Notes under the pieces: model-generated
The model's input: the letters and a program-made list of their open reading frames with translations, nothing else
What the model was told of the DNA's origin: nothing
The model's database searches: none
From: Pirellulaceae bacterium
GTDB taxonomy: Bacteria > Planctomycetota > Planctomycetia > Pirellulales > Pirellulaceae
Direction: 5' to 3'
Assembly (NCBI GenBank): GCA_041749395.1
Contig: JBGTBJ010000096.1
Coordinates: 111-64,110 of the forward strand
Length of the DNA: 64,000 nt
Shown here: positions 55,576 to 64,000 of the stretch, piece after piece
Numbering within the stretch: the first letter of the stretch is position 1
How the letters are laid out: the number at the start of each line of letters is the position of its first letter
Made by a program: the position numbers and the translations under genes

Positions 55576-56985
55576 ATGAAAGTCAGCAAACTTGCATGGC
55601 TGGCCGCAGCGGCGATCGGAATGTCCTCCGGCGTAGCTCAAGCTCAGCAATACGGCACCTACTCCGGTGTTTATCAAACTCAATATCAAGGTCAGCGTCA
55701 GGCAACTGTCAACCAAGTCTCGTGCAATGAGAGTGGTTGTGCGGCAGCCTCGTGTGACTGTGGCGAACCTGCATGCGGCTGCGAAGCTGTGGCTGATCCA
55801 GCGTGCGGATGCGAAGTCGCTTGTGATCCAGGATGCGATTCGGGATGCGACAGCTTGGGATTGGGATTGAATCTCAACCCCGCTGGCTGTTGCGACCTGG
55901 GCGACCCCTACGAATTATTCGGCGAATATTGCGGAATCAAAGTCGGCGGTTGGGGCCAAATTGGTTACCACAGCTTTGACGGTGGCCGACGCTTCAATAA
56001 TCACGCTGACCGCGTCAACCTGCACCAAGGTTGGTTGTATGCAGAGAAGGCGATCGACACCAGTTGCGGTTTCGACATCGGTGGTCGCGTTGACTACATT
56101 TACGGTGTTGACGCCCAAGATACACAAGCCTTCGGTATCGCCAATAATCACTGGGATAACCAGTGGGACAACGGTATCTATGGCCATGCACTGCCTCAAG
56201 CCTACGCCGAAGTTGGTTATGGTGACTTGTCAGTCAAGATTGGTCACTTCTTCACGCTGATCGGTTATGAAGTGGTTCCAGCTACTGGAAACTTCTTCTA
56301 CAGCCACGCTTATACGATGTACAACAGCGAGCCGTTTACTCATACCGGCTTCTTGGCAAAGTACAACGCCAGCGATGATCTGACCCTTTACGGTGGCTAC
56401 ACCTTGGGTTGGGACAGTGGTTTTGAAGACAATGGCGACAGCTTCCTCGGTGGCATTAGCTATCAGGTCAATGACGACTTCAACATGACCTACGCATTAG
56501 TCGCTGGTCGTTTTGGTGACGGCGTGGCCACTGCTGCCGGTGGATCGTTGGACGAGCGTGGTTACATGCACAGCTTGATCTTGAACACTGCATTGACCGA
56601 TAAGACTACCTACATCTTCCAAACCGACTATTTGGATACCGAAGATGCCAATGGTGGCGTGGCTCGTAACACGTTCGATATCAATCAGTACTTGTTGTAC
56701 AACATCAGCGATTGCTGGGCGTTGGGTACACGGGCTGAATGGTACAACGTCAACACCAACAGCCAGCTATTCAATGCTGCTCCAACATCCGGCAACACGG
56801 ACGTTTATGCATTGACCGCTGGTGTGAATTATCGTCCTCATGCCAACGTCTTGATCCGTCCTGAAGTTCGCTGGGATTGGATTAAGGAAGACCGTGCTTC
56901 GCTCAATGCAGCCGGTTTGACGTTCAACGAGAACAACGATCCATCGCAAACGACGTTCGGTATCGACACGATCATTACGTTCTAA
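55576..56985 (+). CDS. Outer-membrane beta-barrel porin (BBP2/DUF1597-like) with a Cys-rich N-terminal segment
   Basis: Signal peptide ..GVAQA. Motifs LHQGWLYAEK, GGRVDYIYG.D, LPQAY.EV.Y, GHFFTLIGYEVVPA.GNFFYSH.Y and EPFTHTG. Terminal Phe. Confidence 0.85.
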   Translation: MKVSKLAWLAAAAIGMSSGVAQAQQYGTYSGVYQTQYQGQRQATVNQVSCNESGCAAASCDCGEPACGCEAVADPACGCEVACDPGCDSGCDSLGLGLNLNPAGCCDLGDPYELFGEYCGIKVGGWGQIGYHSFDGGRRFNNHADRVNLHQGWLYAEKAIDTSCGFDIGGRVDYIYGVDAQDTQAFGIANNHWDNQWDNGIYGHALPQAYAEVGYGDLSVKIGHFFTLIGYEVVPATGNFFYSHAYTMYNSEPFTHTGFLAKYNASDDLTLYGGYTLGWDSGFEDNGDSFLGGISYQVNDDFNMTYALVAGRFGDGVATAAGGSLDERGYMHSLILNTALTDKTTYIFQTDYLDTEDANGGVARNTFDINQYLLYNISDCWALGTRAEWYNVNTNSQLFNAAPTSGNTDVYALTAGVNYRPHANVLIRPEVRWDWIKEDRASLNAAGLTFNENNDPSQTTFGIDTIITF

Positions 56986-57076
56986 TGTGAGGCACTGCTT
57001 CGGAGGAGTTTGCCAGGCGGGGTCGGTCGAACTCGGACAGCCGAGGCACGCAGTTTAACGTGAGCAATCGCCATAG

Positions 57077-57113
57077 GCGTCGCCAAGAATCGCATTCTTG
57101 GCGACGCTTTTTT
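57077..57113 (+). terminator. Rho-independent terminator after the porin gene
   Basis: Perfect 14-bp stem GCGTCGCCAAGAAT-CGC-ATTCTTGGCGACGC followed by TTTTTT. Confidence 0.9.
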
Positions 57114-57498
57114 CATTGCAGACAGCCCATTTCTCTTGCTGCCAATCTCTTGGGCAGTTCACGGTTGTCTCTTGCCTACATGTTAGGCATTTCTCAGTGG
57201 AACCAGCTCATTCAACGGCCTTCCGAAAAACAAAGCAATTTTTTTAAGTCTTTGATATCAAAGCACTTGCGCCGGCAAGGATGGTGTTGCGTTCGATCGT
57301 CGGCGCAGCTCGTGCATGTAACGCACCGACACTAAAGAGCTTGCGTAAAAGTCCGCCTTCGATCACCAGATTGAGGTGAAATTGGCCCGGGCAGGTGTCG
57401 AGGTGGCTTGTGCGCTTAGTTGCCCGAATGTATTGAGCACCACAGGCGTGTTGGTGCAGGGATTTCGCGGAACATTCTGCACGAGAGAAACGATTTAA

Positions 57499-59025
57499 AT
57501 GATTCAGATTTTGAAAGGTCCTTGGTTCACAGTAGCACTCCTTGTGGGGTTGTTGGGGGTTGGCCTGTCACTCGCGTCGGTCGCTTCCGCGCAGGAAGCG
57601 GATGCAGCAGTAATGGAATCCGCGGAATCGGCCGGCGCGGGTGACACGGCTCCAACACCAGCAGTGGAGAGCGAAGAAGCCCCCACAGTTGCAGACATCG
57701 TCAACATTGCTGATGTCGATCCAGCACAGGCAACGAATTACACGATCAATACGATGATCATGTTTATTTGTGCGGTGCTCGTGATTTTCATGCAGGCTGG
57801 TTTCGCGATGGTCGAAGTCGGCTTGAATGCAGCGAAAAACACGGTCAACATTTTGGCCAAAAACGTGATGGACTTAGCAGTGGGTGTGCTGCTGTTTCTG
57901 TTCGTCGGCTTCAATTTGATGTATCCGGGCAGCTGGGTTGTCGAAGGCTATATTGGCTCACCTGCACCATTTGTCTCTCGGGATGCTCAAGTCGATAGCA
58001 ACGGTAATTTCACTTCGCAACCACTTCGCGATGACGATGGGAATTTGAAGTACAGTTCGTCTGCCGACTTCTTGTTCCAAGTAGCGTTCGCGGCAACAGC
58101 AGCGACGATTGTTTCAGGTGCGGTCGCTGGGCGTATGAAGTTTGGTGCCTATCTGGTCTACAGTGCTTTGCTCACTGGTTTGATCTATCCCATCAGCGGT
58201 AGTTGGAAATGGGGTGGAGGATTCTTGCAGGAAGCTGGTTTTGCAGATTTCGCAGGATCGGTTGTCGTTCACGCAGTCGGTGGGTTTGCCGGCCTTGCTG
58301 GTGCGATGTTGTTGGGCCCACGACTGGGACGCTTCACAGCAGATGGCAAGGGTGTGCCTCTCCCTGGCCACAATATCACTTTCGCGGCCTTGGGCGTATT
58401 TATCCTGTGGGTTGGGTGGTACGGCTTCAATCCCGGTAGTCAGTTGACCTATGCTGGTGTAGCGAATGCTGAAATCACCACCTACATCGCTGTAACGACC
58501 ACGATTGCTGGCGCTGCAGGTGCGGTCTCTGCGATGGTGATTGCCTGGGTTATGTTTGGCAAGCCTGATTTGACGATGGCCCTCAACGGTGTCTTGGGTG
58601 GGCTAGTTGGTATCACTGCAAATTGCGATCAGGTGTCCCAGGTCAGTGCACTGATCATTGGTGGTGTAGCGGGTGTGCTCGTAGTACTTGGCATCGTAAT
58701 GTTGGACAAGGTCCGCATCGACGATCCAGTAGGCGCGTTTCCTGTGCACGGCGTGTGCGGAGTTTGGGGTGGTCTTGCCACCGGAATCTTCGGTGCAAAC
58801 ATTCCAGACGGCTTGACACGAGGTGGCTACATTCTGGTTCAATCCTACAGTACTGGCATCATTGTCGCGTGGGCCTTCGGAACCATGTTCGCCCTGTTCT
58901 CGGTGCTCAAGGTCCTCGGTTTACTGCGAGTAAGTGCAGAGGAAGAAACGGCAGGCTTGGATATCTCTGAGCACGGCATGCACGCATATCCAAGTGATGC
59001 ACTGGCGGGTCAAGCAGTCCATTAG
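57499..59025 (+). CDS. amtB: Ammonium transporter (Amt family)
   Basis: FMQAGFAMVEVG, FQVAFAATAATIVSGAVAGR, twin-His motifs DFAGSVVVH and DDPVGAFPVHG, GWYGFNPGS and GLDISEHG. Cleavable N-terminal signal. Confidence 0.96.
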   Translation: MIQILKGPWFTVALLVGLLGVGLSLASVASAQEADAAVMESAESAGAGDTAPTPAVESEEAPTVADIVNIADVDPAQATNYTINTMIMFICAVLVIFMQAGFAMVEVGLNAAKNTVNILAKNVMDLAVGVLLFLFVGFNLMYPGSWVVEGYIGSPAPFVSRDAQVDSNGNFTSQPLRDDDGNLKYSSSADFLFQVAFAATAATIVSGAVAGRMKFGAYLVYSALLTGLIYPISGSWKWGGGFLQEAGFADFAGSVVVHAVGGFAGLAGAMLLGPRLGRFTADGKGVPLPGHNITFAALGVFILWVGWYGFNPGSQLTYAGVANAEITTYIAVTTTIAGAAGAVSAMVIAWVMFGKPDLTMALNGVLGGLVGITANCDQVSQVSALIIGGVAGVLVVLGIVMLDKVRIDDPVGAFPVHGVCGVWGGLATGIFGANIPDGLTRGGYILVQSYSTGIIVAWAFGTMFALFSVLKVLGLLRVSAEEETAGLDISEHGMHAYPSDALAGQAVH

Positions 59026-59085
59026 TCGTTAACAGTATAGAAGCAACTTCTCGGCTCTTGCCTGGGCCAGAAGAATCCCCAATGG

Positions 59086-59116
59086 TCTGAGCGGGTGTCC
59101 GCCTCACCCGCTCAGA
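59086..59116 (+). terminator. Strong stem-loop downstream of amt
   Basis: Perfect 12-bp stem TCTGAGCGGGTG-TCCGCCT-CACCCGCTCAGA. A T-run follows at 59123-27. Confidence 0.7.
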
Positions 59117-59170
59117 TCGGGGTTTTTCAAAGAGAAGTTACCAGAGGCGTGATCTTCGATTTTTATTCTG

Positions 59171-59209
59171 CCCGCTGCTGAGGACCTCCACCCTTGGCAG
59201 CGGGTTTTT
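59171..59209 (+). terminator. Second terminator-like hairpin 70 nt upstream of the PII gene
   Basis: CCCGCTGC(TGAGG)...(CCTTG)GCAGCGGG followed by TTTTT. Confidence 0.55.
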
Positions 59210-59279
59210 GTTTACACTCTCGGCATCACGAAGGACGTTTTGACTACCGTTATCATTCCTGTACAAAAAAACACAAACA

Positions 59280-59627
59280 ATGAAGTTGATTATTGCCATC
59301 ATCCAGCCCGACAAATTGGAAGCGGTCAAAGAAGCGCTCAGTGAGGTCGAAGTGGTTCGACTTACCGTGATGGATTGTCAGGGTTTTGGCCGTCAAAAGG
59401 GACAGACGGGCGTGTATCGCGGTCATGAGTTCAGCGTGAACTTGCTGCGCAAAGTCCAACTTCAGATCGCTGTGAATGATGACTTTGTCAAGCCAACGGT
59501 AGATGCGATCCTCAAGGGAGGAAGAACGGGCGACAAAGGGCAAATCGGTGACGGCAAGATCTTCGTCCTCCCGATGGATGATTGCATTCGCATCCGTACC
59601 GGTGAACGGGGAAGTGAAGCGATCTAA
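59280..59627 (+). CDS. glnK: PII family nitrogen regulatory protein (GlnB/GlnK-like)
   Basis: GFGRQKG, YRG, K58 and GDGKIFV...IRIRTGERG. Directly downstream of amt. Confidence 0.93.
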   Translation: MKLIIAIIQPDKLEAVKEALSEVEVVRLTVMDCQGFGRQKGQTGVYRGHEFSVNLLRKVQLQIAVNDDFVKPTVDAILKGGRTGDKGQIGDGKIFVLPMDDCIRIRTGERGSEAI

Positions 59628-60271: not shown

Positions 60272-61381
60272 TTAGAGCTTGGATGGTAGTAGGTCGAACA
60301 AGGCGGCGATTTCTTCTGGGGTACCAACGCTGATACGTAGGCCATCACCCCAATCGGGAAAATCCATATAACGAACCAGGATGCGGTTGCGTTTCAGTTC
60401 TTCATAGAGTTCGCGATGCGACTGATGCGGATGGGTGCACCAGACAAAATTGGCTTGGGAGGGCGTTACCGTGAATCCTAATTGCGTTAGCTGCGATTCC
60501 ATTTGTTGTCGCGTGTGGCAAATTTTCTGGCAGGTCTCATGCAGCCAAGTTGTCGATTGAATGGCCGCGGTGGCACCGGCAATGGAGAGCGCGTCACAGT
60601 TGTAGCTGTCCTTAATCTTTCCTAATTCGGAGATTAGGTGGGGTTGGGCAACGACAAATCCAAAACGAAGGCCAGCCAGAGAGTAGGCCTTGCTGAGCGT
60701 GCGGGTTACTAGGATTTTGTCGCTTTGTAGAACGAGGTCCAAGCAGTTTGTGTCGGCAAAGTCTGCATACGCCTCGTCGACTACCAGTGGGCAGGGAAGC
60801 GATTCGGCGAGGCGAGCCACTTCGATTGGCGAGAGTACTGTGCCACTGGGGCTGTTGGGATTGGGCAGAAAGGCTAGTCGAAGTCGGTCCTCTCCAGTGG
60901 AAAAAGCGTGCGGCAATTTCCATTGGTCATCGAAGTGAACTTGCTCCCATGTGGCACCCTGAATATCGGCGAGTGTGCGATACAAGATGTAGCTAGGGTA
61001 GGGTAACCTCAAGTGTTGTCCTTCACCGACCATCGCGCGGACCAAGATGGTGAGTATTTCGTCGCTGCCATTGCCAGCTAGAATCCACTCGGGACCAGGA
61101 AGTCCCAGAGTTTGGGCTGCATGTTTGCGGAATTGGCTAGCAGTGGGGTCTGGATATTTTTGCAGTCCCGATCGTGCCGCCCCAACGATCGCATCCGTCA
61201 CTGCTTGAGGTGGTGGATAGGGATTCTCGTTGGTATTGAGCTTGATAAAGGTATCTCCCTGAGGTTGCTCGCCAGGAACATACGGCTTCATGTAAGCCAA
61301 AGTGGGTCGAAACGGGAGCGGCCGAGTTGTCACGATGCGGTGTGTCAATGGTAACGAGCGAAAATCAGGGTGAAAGAACAA
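60272..61381 (-). CDS. hisC: Histidinol-phosphate aminotransferase
   Basis: Likely GTG start near 61333. [34 protein letters not shown] and [15 protein letters not shown]. Confidence 0.95.
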
Positions 61382-61424: not shown

Positions 61425-62798
61425 TTAATCGTCCGCCTTGCAGCGCAATTGGACACTGTTGGCATGGGCGGAAAGCCCTTCTTTTTCAGCGAGGGTTAAC
61501 ACGTCGGGGGCAATGGCGGAAAGGGAATGAGCGTCAAACTGAATCAGGCTGCTGCTGCGAAGAAAATGATTGCAGCTCAAACCGGATGCCCAACGTGCGG
61601 TGCTGCCGGTGGGCAGCACATGGCTGGGGCCCGCTGCGTAATCGCCCAGGGCAACCGGCGTGTAATGACCTAAGAAGGTTGCGCCGGCATTGCGAATTTT
61701 CAGTGCCAGCGAATGGGGATCGACCGTCTGAATGTGCAGATGTTCGGGCGCGAATTGATCGGTGATCTCAATAGCTTGAGCGGCATCATTGACCAGGATC
61801 AATGCGCTGAAAGCCTGTAGAGAATCGAGCGTTAGTTCGGCACGTTGAAGTTGGGCCACTTGTCTGACAAGTTGCTCATAGACCGCGTCGATCAACTCCG
61901 GTCGCCAAGTAATCAGGATCGCCGAGCCAGGAGAGTGTTCGGCCTGCGACAACATGTCGGCAGCCACGAAATCGGCGCGGGCCGTTTCGTCGGCGATGAC
62001 GATGACTTCGCTGGGACCAGCGATTGAGTCGATATCGACTTGGCCGTAGACATGCTTTTTTGCCAGTGCAACAAACAAGTTGCCAGGTCCAACGATTTTG
62101 TCGACTGCGGGCAAGCAATCGCAACCATAAGCCATTGCGGCAACTGCATGGGCTCCACCGATTCGATATACCTCTTGTACGCCCAGTTCGTGACACGTGG
62201 CCAGCATGTCTCGGTTATAGGATCCGAATGGCGTTGGCGGCGCGACGACGGCGATCTGTTCGACTCCAGCGACTTGAGCAGGCACGACGGTCATCAACAC
62301 GGTTGACGGATAGGCCGCCGCGCCCCCAGGAACGCAAACTCCGACGCGACGCAGCGGCAGATAGCGTTGGGTCAGGGAGACACCGGGCTGCGGTTGAATA
62401 GTGACGTCACGGTGCCGAATGGCGAGCTGGAAAGTAGCAATATTGTCGCGAATGCGGCGGACGCTTGCCAAAAAGTTTGGCTCGGCTGCTGCATGGGCGG
62501 CTATCAAGTCCGCTTCGGGGACTCGCAGTTGGCTCGCCGTCAAGTCCGCACCATCCAATGATTTTCCATAACGTAACAGTGCGGCTGTTCCTTCCGCTGC
62601 GATATCGTGACAGATTCGATCGACCACCTGGACGGGCGACAGGGGTTCGCCGAAGACTTCCTCCGTCAGTTGGCGGCCGCGGGGACTGACTACGTTTCCT
62701 TGGGGGCTGAGCTTACTTCGCAGCGCATCTAGTAAAGCGAACGCATCACCGGAGCGGGCATCGAGGCGAGTGATTTGGAGGGGGGGTGAGGTGGACAT
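61425..62798 (-). CDS. hisD: Histidinol dehydrogenase
   Basis: ORF 61425..62828, likely start 62798. VPGGAAAYPST, KIVGPGNLFV, IDSIAGPSE, QAEH, APEHL and DYAAGPSHVLPT. Confidence 0.96.
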   Translation of the reverse strand: MSTSPPLQITRLDARSGDAFALLDALRSKLSPQGNVVSPRGRQLTEEVFGEPLSPVQVVDRICHDIAAEGTAALLRYGKSLDGADLTASQLRVPEADLIAAHAAAEPNFLASVRRIRDNIATFQLAIRHRDVTIQPQPGVSLTQRYLPLRRVGVCVPGGAAAYPSTVLMTVVPAQVAGVEQIAVVAPPTPFGSYNRDMLATCHELGVQEVYRIGGAHAVAAMAYGCDCLPAVDKIVGPGNLFVALAKKHVYGQVDIDSIAGPSEVIVIADETARADFVAADMLSQAEHSPGSAILITWRPELIDAVYEQLVRQVAQLQRAELTLDSLQAFSALILVNDAAQAIEITDQFAPEHLHIQTVDPHSLALKIRNAGATFLGHYTPVALGDYAAGPSHVLPTGSTARWASGLSCNHFLRSSSLIQFDAHSLSAIAPDVLTLAEKEGLSAHANSVQLRCKADD

Positions 62799-63037
62799 AA
62801 GAACCGCGGTCGCGCGAGGAGTGGCCAAAGCAATTTCATCATAAGTGATCAGGCATCATAGGTAATGGGCCTGAGTTGGAAACCATCCCCAGCGGCGATG
62901 TTCGGCAAGGCACTCGGCGGGTTACACTAATGAAACACTACTGGGGATTGTTCGCTACCCAGCACAGTACAAAACGGGCGGTAAATTCGTTGACCGTCTC
63001 GGATGTCATCGCAGCATGAAGGAATAGGGGCCCTGGT

Positions 63038-64000
63038 ATGACCACCTGGAATCGCCGCAGGTTCGTTCAAACATCCATGTTGGGGCTGGCGACAGCCGGT
63101 ATGGGATTGTCGTGGGAGGATGTGTGTGCAGAACCTTTGGCTGACGAGGGGCTCGTCTCCTACTTAAAGCGGCTCCGAAGCGATGCGGATGGCGGAGTTG
63201 GCAGTGGTGCGGACAACGGTTTTGATCTGAACCTTTATCGACAGCTCATCGGTCATGCCAACGAGTTTAAAGAAGGAGACGCCAGCCTTGGGGTGGCTGC
63301 ACCGAATCCAGCGGCTCGTCAGCGGGCGCGACAGTTGTTGTCAAATACTTTGATTGCAGACTTGGATGCGCACCCAATCTTTGAAGATCAATTAACCAAC
63401 TTGATTGACGAGTGGATTGATCAGGAGCAACGTGCAATAGCGGCCAGGTTGACTTTGGGCGAATTGAAATTGTTTCTATTAATGGAGACGGAAGATCGTA
63501 TCAAAGAGCTTGCCAAAGGATTGTCTTCGTTTGTTATTGGTTGTGTCGTGAAGCTGATGTCAAACGATGAGCTCGTTGCCGTCGGTGGAAAAGTATTCCA
63601 TCCGATGCCCGGTTCGCGATTGGGAGCCAAGGGATATTTGGGAGCTCGTGTTCAACCCAATTCGCCCACCGATCATGTTGATGATATCCGTTGGCAGGTT
63701 CTGGATGCATGGAGCTACGGAGTTGGCGATATGTTGCTGGGCACGAATCCCGTGTCAAGCGATCCGCAATCGGTAGTATCGATCGAGCAAACGTTGCAGG
63801 ACTTGCTGGTTACTTTCGGTTTAGAGCGAACCCTGCCCCACTGTGTGCTTGCTCATATCGACGTGCAAGCAGAGGCCGAGCGATTGGTGCCTGGATGTAC
63901 GCGTTTGTGGTTTCAGAGCATTGCCGGATGCGATAGCGCAAATAAGACATTTGATATCAGCATCGAGAAGATGATCGCGCATGCGGAACGACGCGATGGC
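63038..64000 (+). CDS. eutB: Ethanolamine ammonia-lyase large-subunit (EutB)-like protein with a twin-arginine signal peptide, runs off the window
   Basis: Not in the ORF track because it has no stop codon in the window. Manual translation from ATG 63038 stays open for 321 codons: MTTWNRRRFVQTSMLGLATAG...ANEFKEGD..LGVAA...VKLMSNDEL...RVQPNSPTD...YGVGD.LLGTNPVS...CVLAHIDVQ...WFQSIAG. Confidence 0.85.
   Translation, partial: MTTWNRRRFVQTSMLGLATAGMGLSWEDVCAEPLADEGLVSYLKRLRSDADGGVGSGADNGFDLNLYRQLIGHANEFKEGDASLGVAAPNPAARQRARQLLSNTLIADLDAHPIFEDQLTNLIDEWIDQEQRAIAARLTLGELKLFLLMETEDRIKELAKGLSSFVIGCVVKLMSNDELVAVGGKVFHPMPGSRLGAKGYLGARVQPNSPTDHVDDIRWQVLDAWSYGVGDMLLGTNPVSSDPQSVVSIEQTLQDLLVTFGLERTLPHCVLAHIDVQAEAERLVPGCTRLWFQSIAGCDSANKTFDISIEKMIAHAERRDG

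Follow-up and report, generated by a model that had tools for sequence, protein, structure and literature searches.

At the end of a 64,000-nucleotide stretch of a Pirellulaceae genome (contig JBGTBJ010000096.1, positions 111 to 64,110; the whole stretch is called the window below) lies the 5′ part of a gene whose product we consider rather likely to be an exported ethanolamine ammonia-lyase (EAL), a stand-alone, single-chain enzyme that would be loaded with adenosylcobalamin (AdoCbl) in the cytoplasm and exported by the twin-arginine translocation (Tat) system. Together with its orthologues it points to a normally cytoplasmic radical enzyme that hundreds of bacterial species probably transport to the periplasm in folded form. 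The layout predicted for the complete protein is a Tat signal peptide, the EutB catalytic barrel, a conserved linker of ~50 amino acids and the EutC cobalamin-binding domain.

An earlier note, made from the DNA letters alone, had pointed to an unlisted open reading frame (ORF) with EutB motifs, and this ORF was recovered with all motifs quoted. It is opened by an ATG at position 63038 of the plus strand and runs without a stop to position 64000, its 321 codons forming the last 963 bases of the window; it is missing from the mechanical ORF list because it continues beyond the window end. An in-frame TGA (63017–63019) is located six codons upstream of this ATG, which makes a start further upstream impossible. 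The downstream ATGs at codons 14 and 22 were rejected as starts because the use of either would delete a motif that is invariant in the orthologues. The start thus lies upstream of the twin-arginine motif, as the earlier note had supposed. The motifs were located at residues 5–11 (NRRRFVQ), 29–32 (VCA/E, the slash marking the presumed cleavage site), 75–81 (NEFKEGD), 204–212 (RVQPNSPTD), 227–231 (YGVGD), 235–238 (GTNP), 269–273 (CVLAH) and 292–297 (FQSIAG).

The Pfam profile PF06751 (EutB) matches residues 67–317 with 221 bits (cutoff 25) and an E-value of 3e-65, corresponding to profile positions 6–259 of 435. The NCBIfam profile NF011649 (EutB) matches at 2e-83, with 280.7 bits against a cutoff of 554 and only 57% of the profile within the window. 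The PDB entries 2qez and 3abo match at ~1e-32, and residue 65 of the query aligns with residue 15 of Escherichia coli EutB; the window protein therefore has an N-terminal extension of ~50 amino acids. On every feature testable in the part present, the window protein belongs to the EAL family.

The extension starts with a basic n-region containing NRRRFVQ, followed by 18 uncharged residues and then by VCA/E, and the Tat-type leader that the earlier note had assigned to this EutB homologue is borne out by this layout. The twin-arginine motif lies within the first 35 residues, and at least 13 uncharged residues are followed by an A-x-A-type site. The best 12-residue window of the h-region has a mean Kyte-Doolittle value of 1.34. 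The leader is predicted to be a Tat-type signal, and its conservation across several phyla, described below, exceeds chance.

Orthologues were collected by a scan of GTDB with one genome per species and two clade-specific peptide patterns, and relatives carrying the signature motifs of the clade were confirmed in at least 565 species. The 80 best-matching GTDB loci and two metagenome loci, 82 in total, were examined. The twin-arginine motif is present in 78 of the 82 loci, 60–70 residues upstream of the ANxFKEGD block; one of the exceptions is cut at the contig end and the other three are Myxococcota genes without any signal. The survey of the motif among orthologues proposed by the earlier note thus turned out positive for several phyla. 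A first homologue search gave 276 relatives with 47–63% identity, all listed ones being shorter than 560 amino acids, and nearly all listed relatives with an intact N-terminus show xRRxF(L) followed by a hydrophobic stretch. In two alignments (A2 and A3, 67 and 77 sequences) R6 is invariant and R7 and F9 are conserved to at least 90%; these are the sole conserved columns in the first ~35 residues. Counted by position, the motif reads R in 71 of 71 sequences, then R (68) or K (3), any residue, and F (55) or L (11).

Of 77 orthologues, 71 passed a TATFIND-like rule (RR or RK, then at least 13 uncharged residues), compared to 13% of 599 flanking ORFs serving as background, and the six orthologues that failed have 10–12 uncharged residues. 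With a strict rule (RRx followed by F, L, V, I or M) the values were 67 of 76 in the family and 4.3% of the flanking ORFs. Some orthologue leaders are followed directly by a lipobox cysteine downstream of the Tat motif. This is seen in Bacteroidota (L063, L075, L078, L081, P0241, P0093 and P0044; e.g. ...LLLFNGC or ...LLFKGC) and in Myxococcota (L026, L052, L072 and L076; ...ALALASC), in the latter often followed by a proline-rich tether. Because the cleavage type shifts by phylum while the arginine pair and the h-region stay, the segment has the appearance of a working export signal, and the lipobox in two phyla behaves like an independent sign of export. Canonical EutB representatives (445–466 amino acids) align from their residues 8–20 onwards and therefore have no such leader.

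One could still argue that the leader is not an export signal and that the enzyme stays in the cytoplasm, the extension acting as a membrane tether or as a tag for assembly or for compartment targeting. Export is indeed deduced from sequence, and the TIGR01409 score of the window leader (15.2 bits, residues 4–25, E = 0.02) falls just below the cutoff of 16.7. Moreover, short Tat hidden Markov models pick up only ~30% of the orthologue leaders (Pfam TAT_signal, PF10518, 23 of 77; TIGR01409, 24 of 77; best E-value 4.9e-6), while some other leaders match the Tat leader profiles of FtsP or formate dehydrogenase. The ATP-dependent repair system of AdoCbl enzymes would also be unavailable outside the cytoplasm. 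Nevertheless, conservation at the N-terminus is confined to RRxF with an uncharged stretch, the signature of signal peptides, and the lipobox cysteines stand at the right distance in two phyla. Encapsulation peptides of bacterial microcompartments (BMC) are amphipathic helices, and no shell genes are present in the 82 loci or the window. Finally, signal-less paralogues lack the entire segment and do not have a degenerate copy of it. A cytoplasmic enzyme with a non-export leader is thus quite improbable in our view.

Tat export of a complete enzyme would be favored by the structure of the gene in the orthologues. In the loci that cover the whole gene it forms one ORF of 756–944 codons from stop to stop in all but four, and these four are frameshifted long-read assemblies. 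From the chosen start the orthologues have 750–894 amino acids, typically ~766. A second search with a complete orthologue yielded 5128 clusters (90% identity) at E ≤ 1e-20, again typically of ~766 amino acids, which carry both PF06751 (EutB) and PF05985 (EutC) and are named at the source merely 'ethanolamine ammonia-lyase subunit EutB'. All complete orthologues have EutC fused to EutB within this one ORF. For the full-length orthologue P0121 the PF06751 match reaches 445 bits over profile positions 6–434 of 435, compared to 683 bits for a canonical fusion. The EutC core motifs DVQxVISDGL, GRV and GERPG are retained, and a conserved linker (GDPxWVY..KGDxR....RGVxIAxGxG..WDL) takes the place of the first ~90 residues of E. 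coli EutC. The N-terminus of E. coli EutC, and thus its microcompartment-targeting (encapsulation) peptide, has no counterpart in the orthologues.

An AlphaFold2 model of P0121 has a mean predicted local distance difference test score of 90.4, with values below 50 only in residues 1–31, which correspond to the predicted signal peptide of the window protein, and a predicted template modelling score of 0.88. In a Foldseek comparison the model matches 3abo_A with a target-normalised TM-score of 0.89 (root-mean-square deviation 2.3 Å) and 3abo_B/D with 0.67–0.71, diol and glycerol dehydratases following far behind. According to the model, the cofactor-binding architecture appears intact within the single chain. 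The fusion would suit a Tat passenger because one signal carries the complete cofactor-binding unit. By orthology, the rest of EutB, the linker and EutC of the window gene are expected beyond position 64000.

Recoding was considered as the cause of 'partial' homologues (340–560 amino acids) on megabase contigs and was rejected, since the frameshifts lie at a different position in each long-read assembly. Frameshift-broken homologues were seen in L001 (9400–9600), L002 (9548–9641), L014, L044, P0003, P0005, P0018, P0021, P0078, P0079, P0099 and P0103; these frameshifts are assembly errors and give truncated or split gene calls.

Shibata in 2010 and Mori in 2014 are said to have found that the substrate of EAL is held by Arg160, Gln162, Asn193, Glu287, Asp362 and Met392 (E. 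coli numbering; 3ABO). In an alignment with E. coli EutB plus EutC, all 66 complete orthologues have these same six residues without exception. The window itself shows only the first three, the positions of Glu287, Asp362 and Met392 lying beyond position 64000. A substrate-binding role of Arg160 is cited in PMC10440813. The motifs ETGQG and FQSIAG are invariant in the window's own clade.

The earlier note had taken the loop NSPTD as a hint at a shifted substrate, and an enzyme exported as proposed could act on another vicinal amino alcohol or on a head-group derivative, such as 2-amino-1-propanol or phospho- or glycero-linked ethanolamine. The clade is indeed distant from characterised EALs, with ~32% identity to E. 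coli EutB and the lower Pfam EutB score given above (445 against 683 bits for a canonical fusion). It has motifs of its own (QPNSPTD, RCCLED), and near D362 it carries S and L in place of E. coli Y365 and N367. On the other hand, the loop varies among proven EALs as well (NDTRD in E. coli, NHPTD in Listeria), so that it does not support the shift, the six substrate-contact residues are unchanged throughout, and the neighbouring genes give no hint of an alternative substrate. We therefore regard another substrate as unlikely and keep ethanolamine as the predicted one.

Tat-bearing relatives with damaged active sites exist. In the fused protein P0268, with Tat motif and lipobox, Q162 is changed to R and the N193 motif is lost, and the fused, Tat-bearing proteins P0084 and P0089 carry N164T and M392V. 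The three may be diverged or non-catalytic paralogues. Such relatives, together with the awkwardness of radical chemistry without repair in an oxidising compartment, could suggest that the window protein itself is exported but is no working lyase, having evolved from an EAL into a periplasmic protein that binds or scavenges corrinoids. The invariance of the six substrate residues, of ETGQG and of FQSIAG in the window's clade would be hard to explain without catalysis, however, and a pure binder would have no need of Tat. This possibility appears very remote to us, and a catalytically active, exported EAL is the reading followed below.

The genomic surroundings were compared over the 82 loci and the window. 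tblastn with 15 E. coli Eut proteins (EutA, H, G, J, E, N, M, D, T, Q, P, S, R, K and L) gave no match at 1e-4 in these loci or in the window, and neither a BMC nor an EutA family is among the 25 most frequent Pfam families of 125 flanking genes. The earlier note had suggested looking for a fused or adjacent EutC, an EutA reactivase and BMC genes; the first is found within the same ORF of the complete orthologues and the others are absent from the loci. There is also no conserved neighbour, as no Pfam family occurs more than six times among the 125 immediate neighbours. In a search for operon partners, both BLAST clustering of 666 flanking ORFs and the Pfam scan of the 125 neighbours yielded only generic families (DUF1501, sulfatase(-like) and PSCyt), which are hyper-abundant in planctomycetes, and these were rejected. 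The neighbours of the Myxococcota signal-less and lipoprotein paralogues were compared as well, and this contrast was uninformative. By its gene content and surroundings, the gene is a self-contained, stand-alone unit outside the microcompartment-associated eut system.

In the window the eutBC-like gene is divergent from hisD-hisC-hisB, and a unit of a BBP2 porin, amt and glnB lies beyond hisB. The earlier note had linked ammonium release to this amt-PII pair. The link could not be upheld: hisBCD lie in between on the opposite strand, and in none of the 82 loci does a homologue of the window's Amt, PII or HisD lie within 10 kb of the gene. A functional link to amt-glnB was therefore rejected, the proximity not being conserved. 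The porin is a BBP2/OmpL-like beta-barrel protein with a Cys-rich N-terminal region; its gene immediately precedes amt and glnB (PII), which share its strand (55576–59627), and porin, ammonium transporter and PII look like one unit. The listed hisB-like ORF overlaps the hisC-like (aminotransferase) one by 77 nt (60272–60348), which is probably not real and due to an over-long start call for hisB (GTG at 60348).

No cobalamin riboswitch or any other Rfam family was matched in positions 62600–63300 by an Rfam E-value scan, and a promoter scan of the upstream region revealed one weak site only, on the minus strand. The region 62000–64000 was found at ~3–7x depth in four runs (X1–X4) of one hot-springs metagenome study; the contigs of this metagenome are fragmented, and one extends 1214 nt beyond position 64000.

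Taken together, we propose that the fused alpha-beta unit would fold in the cytoplasm and bind AdoCbl there, and that the Tat system would then carry the folded unit across the inner membrane. The enzyme would be released by signal peptidase I in the case of the window protein and most Planctomycetota, or anchored by a lipid in Bacteroidota and Myxococcota. In the periplasm it would use the usual radical 1,2-elimination to turn ethanolamine into acetaldehyde and ammonium, and no transporter, microcompartment or reactivase would be dedicated to it. We infer that its role is most likely the scavenging of nitrogen (and carbon) from ethanolamine set free from phospholipid head groups. Export could also be viewed as a substitute for the microcompartment in acetaldehyde containment. 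Acetaldehyde crosses membranes freely, which makes the argument of keeping it outside a weak one.

Several observations weigh against this proposal. The window holds only the first 321 residues, so that the EutC fusion as well as E287, D362 and M392 are deduced from orthologues. In some Bacteroidota leaders R-R is replaced by R-K or R-E, and the fused relative P0244 has a strongly hydrophobic N-terminal anchor, MIFRSHVLIRALLLSAITALVIFIY, without a twin arginine; P0244 may be a Sec-type or membrane-anchored variant. Because of such leaders the export route may be Sec and not Tat in some lineages. Three Myxococcota paralogues (L047, L065 and L074) lack a signal altogether. The EALs characterised so far form alpha6-beta6 complexes of ~500 kDa, which are too large for Tat; assembly after export or a smaller oligomer of the fused form would therefore be required. 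AdoCbl enzymes occasionally undergo suicide inactivation, and their repair (EutA, adenosyltransferase) depends on ATP, which the periplasm does not contain. The exported enzyme would thus have a finite working life or need cofactor exchange.

Compared to known systems, the exported type shares with EutB/EutC of E. coli and Salmonella (3ABO) and with Listeria EutB (2QEZ) the TIM-barrel (triose-phosphate isomerase barrel) EutB and the EutC domain (PF06751, PF05985) and the six substrate residues. It differs from these proteins, with ~32% identity to E. coli EutB, by the fusion of the subunits through the ~50-residue linker and by the N-terminal Tat signal, and from their eut systems by standing alone, without eutA, shell genes, eutH, eutE or eutT nearby. 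The other EutB-EutC fusions named below also have the two domains in one chain; none of them carries a Tat leader.

Reductive dehalogenases (RdhA/PceA) are corrinoid enzymes that fold and take up their cofactor in the cytoplasm and are then brought by Tat to the outer face of the inner membrane. To our knowledge they are the only precedent for a Tat-exported corrinoid enzyme. They are not homologous to the family described here, and their corrinoid is a redox cofactor acting with Fe–S clusters and not an AdoCbl radical initiator. Methylamine dehydrogenase and the copper amine oxidase TynA convert amines in the periplasm to aldehyde and ammonium, with subsequent uptake or oxidation, and are thus physiologically alike. 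Their folds and cofactors are unrelated (tryptophan tryptophylquinone; topaquinone and copper), and their reactions are oxidative, whereas EAL performs a redox-neutral radical elimination.

The carriers of the gene belong to Planctomycetota, Verrucomicrobiota, Bacteroidota, Myxococcota and other phyla; among the cultured ones are Tautonia sociabilis GM2012, Archangium violaceum Cb vi76, Pyxidicoccus xibeiensis and Gimesia. An exhaustive search of cluster representatives gave 631 matches at E ≤ 1e-3. The linker-bearing fused type with QPNSPTD also occurs without a leader, both in bacteria (P0255, P0356, P0370, L047, L065, L074) and in eukaryote-like sequences (P0252, P0256, P0262, P0276). Canonical-type fusions (P0307, P0334, P0343, P0350) have no comparable spacer, the EutC match of P0307 starting ~20 residues past the EutB match. 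Eukaryote-like members of the linker-bearing type are P0252 (1110 amino acids), P0256, P0262, P0263, P0270, P0273, P0276 and P0281. P0252 has two C2 domains ahead of EutB-EutC, as confirmed by Pfam; for the others, Asn-rich or low-complexity inserts suggest an origin from protists or fungi. Myxococcota (Archangium, Myxococcaceae) hold two fused forms, a Tat-lipoprotein (L026, L052, L072, L076) and a signal-less one (L047, L065, L074). The three signal-less paralogues are nested in the Tat-bearing group of a neighbour-joining tree, a distance tree without support values, which weakly suggests duplication followed by signal loss rather than an ancestral state. The gene is also present on a contig (L054) labelled as a 'Candidatus Kuenenia stuttgartiensis' metagenome-assembled genome (MAG). 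In the tree its closest relative is a generic Planctomycetota MAG (L045), and the contig may be mis-binned.

The features of the window gene are compiled in Table 1. The insertion listed there is specific to the window's lineage and has no counterpart in any of the 14 aligned homologues.

Table 1 Features of the eutBC-like gene and its upstream region (window coordinates; a dot marks a feature without strand)
Feature	Position	Strand	Source
5′ portion, 321 codons long, of the gene for a fused ethanolamine ammonia-lyase: predicted Tat signal and EutB domain	63038..64000	+	
Predicted Tat signal peptide, residues 1–31, MTTWNRRRFVQTSMLGLATAGMGLSWEDVCA (then EP)	63038..63130	+	
Twin-arginine core R6-R7-R8-F9; N-R-R-R-F-V-Q compared to the consensus S/T-R-R-x-F-L-K	63053..63064	+	
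h-region FVQTSMLGLATAGMGLSW, 18 uncharged residues, moderately hydrophobic	63062..63115	+	
V-C-A/E, likely signal peptidase I site; mature start would be E32	63122..63133	+	inspection
12-residue Gly/Asp-rich insertion DADGGVGSGADN in the mature N-terminus, just upstream of the GFD...ANEFKEGD block	63182..63217	+	alignment A1
EutB-homologous region, residues 65–321 (E. coli EutB 15–263): N-terminal helices and first part of the TIM barrel	63230..64000	+	
R204 and Q206, counterparts of the substrate-binding Arg160 and Gln162 of E. coli EutB	63647..63655	+	
N237, equivalent to E. coli EutB Asn193 (substrate-binding)	63746..63748	+	
AGGAA, possible ribosome-binding site 13 nt upstream of the ATG (weak)	63020..63024	+	direct sequence reading
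Intergenic region separating hisD (minus strand) from the divergently oriented eutBC-like ORF	62829..63037	.	ORF list, Pfam for hisD

A full-text literature search for an exported EAL found nothing. All characterised AdoCbl-dependent eliminases and mutases that we know of act in the cytoplasm, in microcompartments or in mitochondria, near ATP-driven reactivation and re-adenosylation. We see about an even chance that the family described here is the first AdoCbl-dependent radical enzyme outside the cytoplasm: a single-chain EAL carried by Tat together with its coenzyme B12, working free or lipid-anchored in the periplasm without an ATP-dependent reactivase or adenosyltransferase, in more than 500 species. 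If this holds true, cells would deliberately export B12, and neither an ethanolamine transporter nor a microcompartment would be needed to harvest ethanolamine nitrogen. It would raise the questions of how a radical B12 enzyme survives without repair in an oxidising compartment, whether Tat export acts as a B12 sink, and how ethanolamine, which is abundant from phospholipid turnover, serves as a nitrogen source for environmental bacteria whose periplasmic metabolism is large. As a fused single chain, the protein would also provide a convenient minimal EAL for biochemistry.

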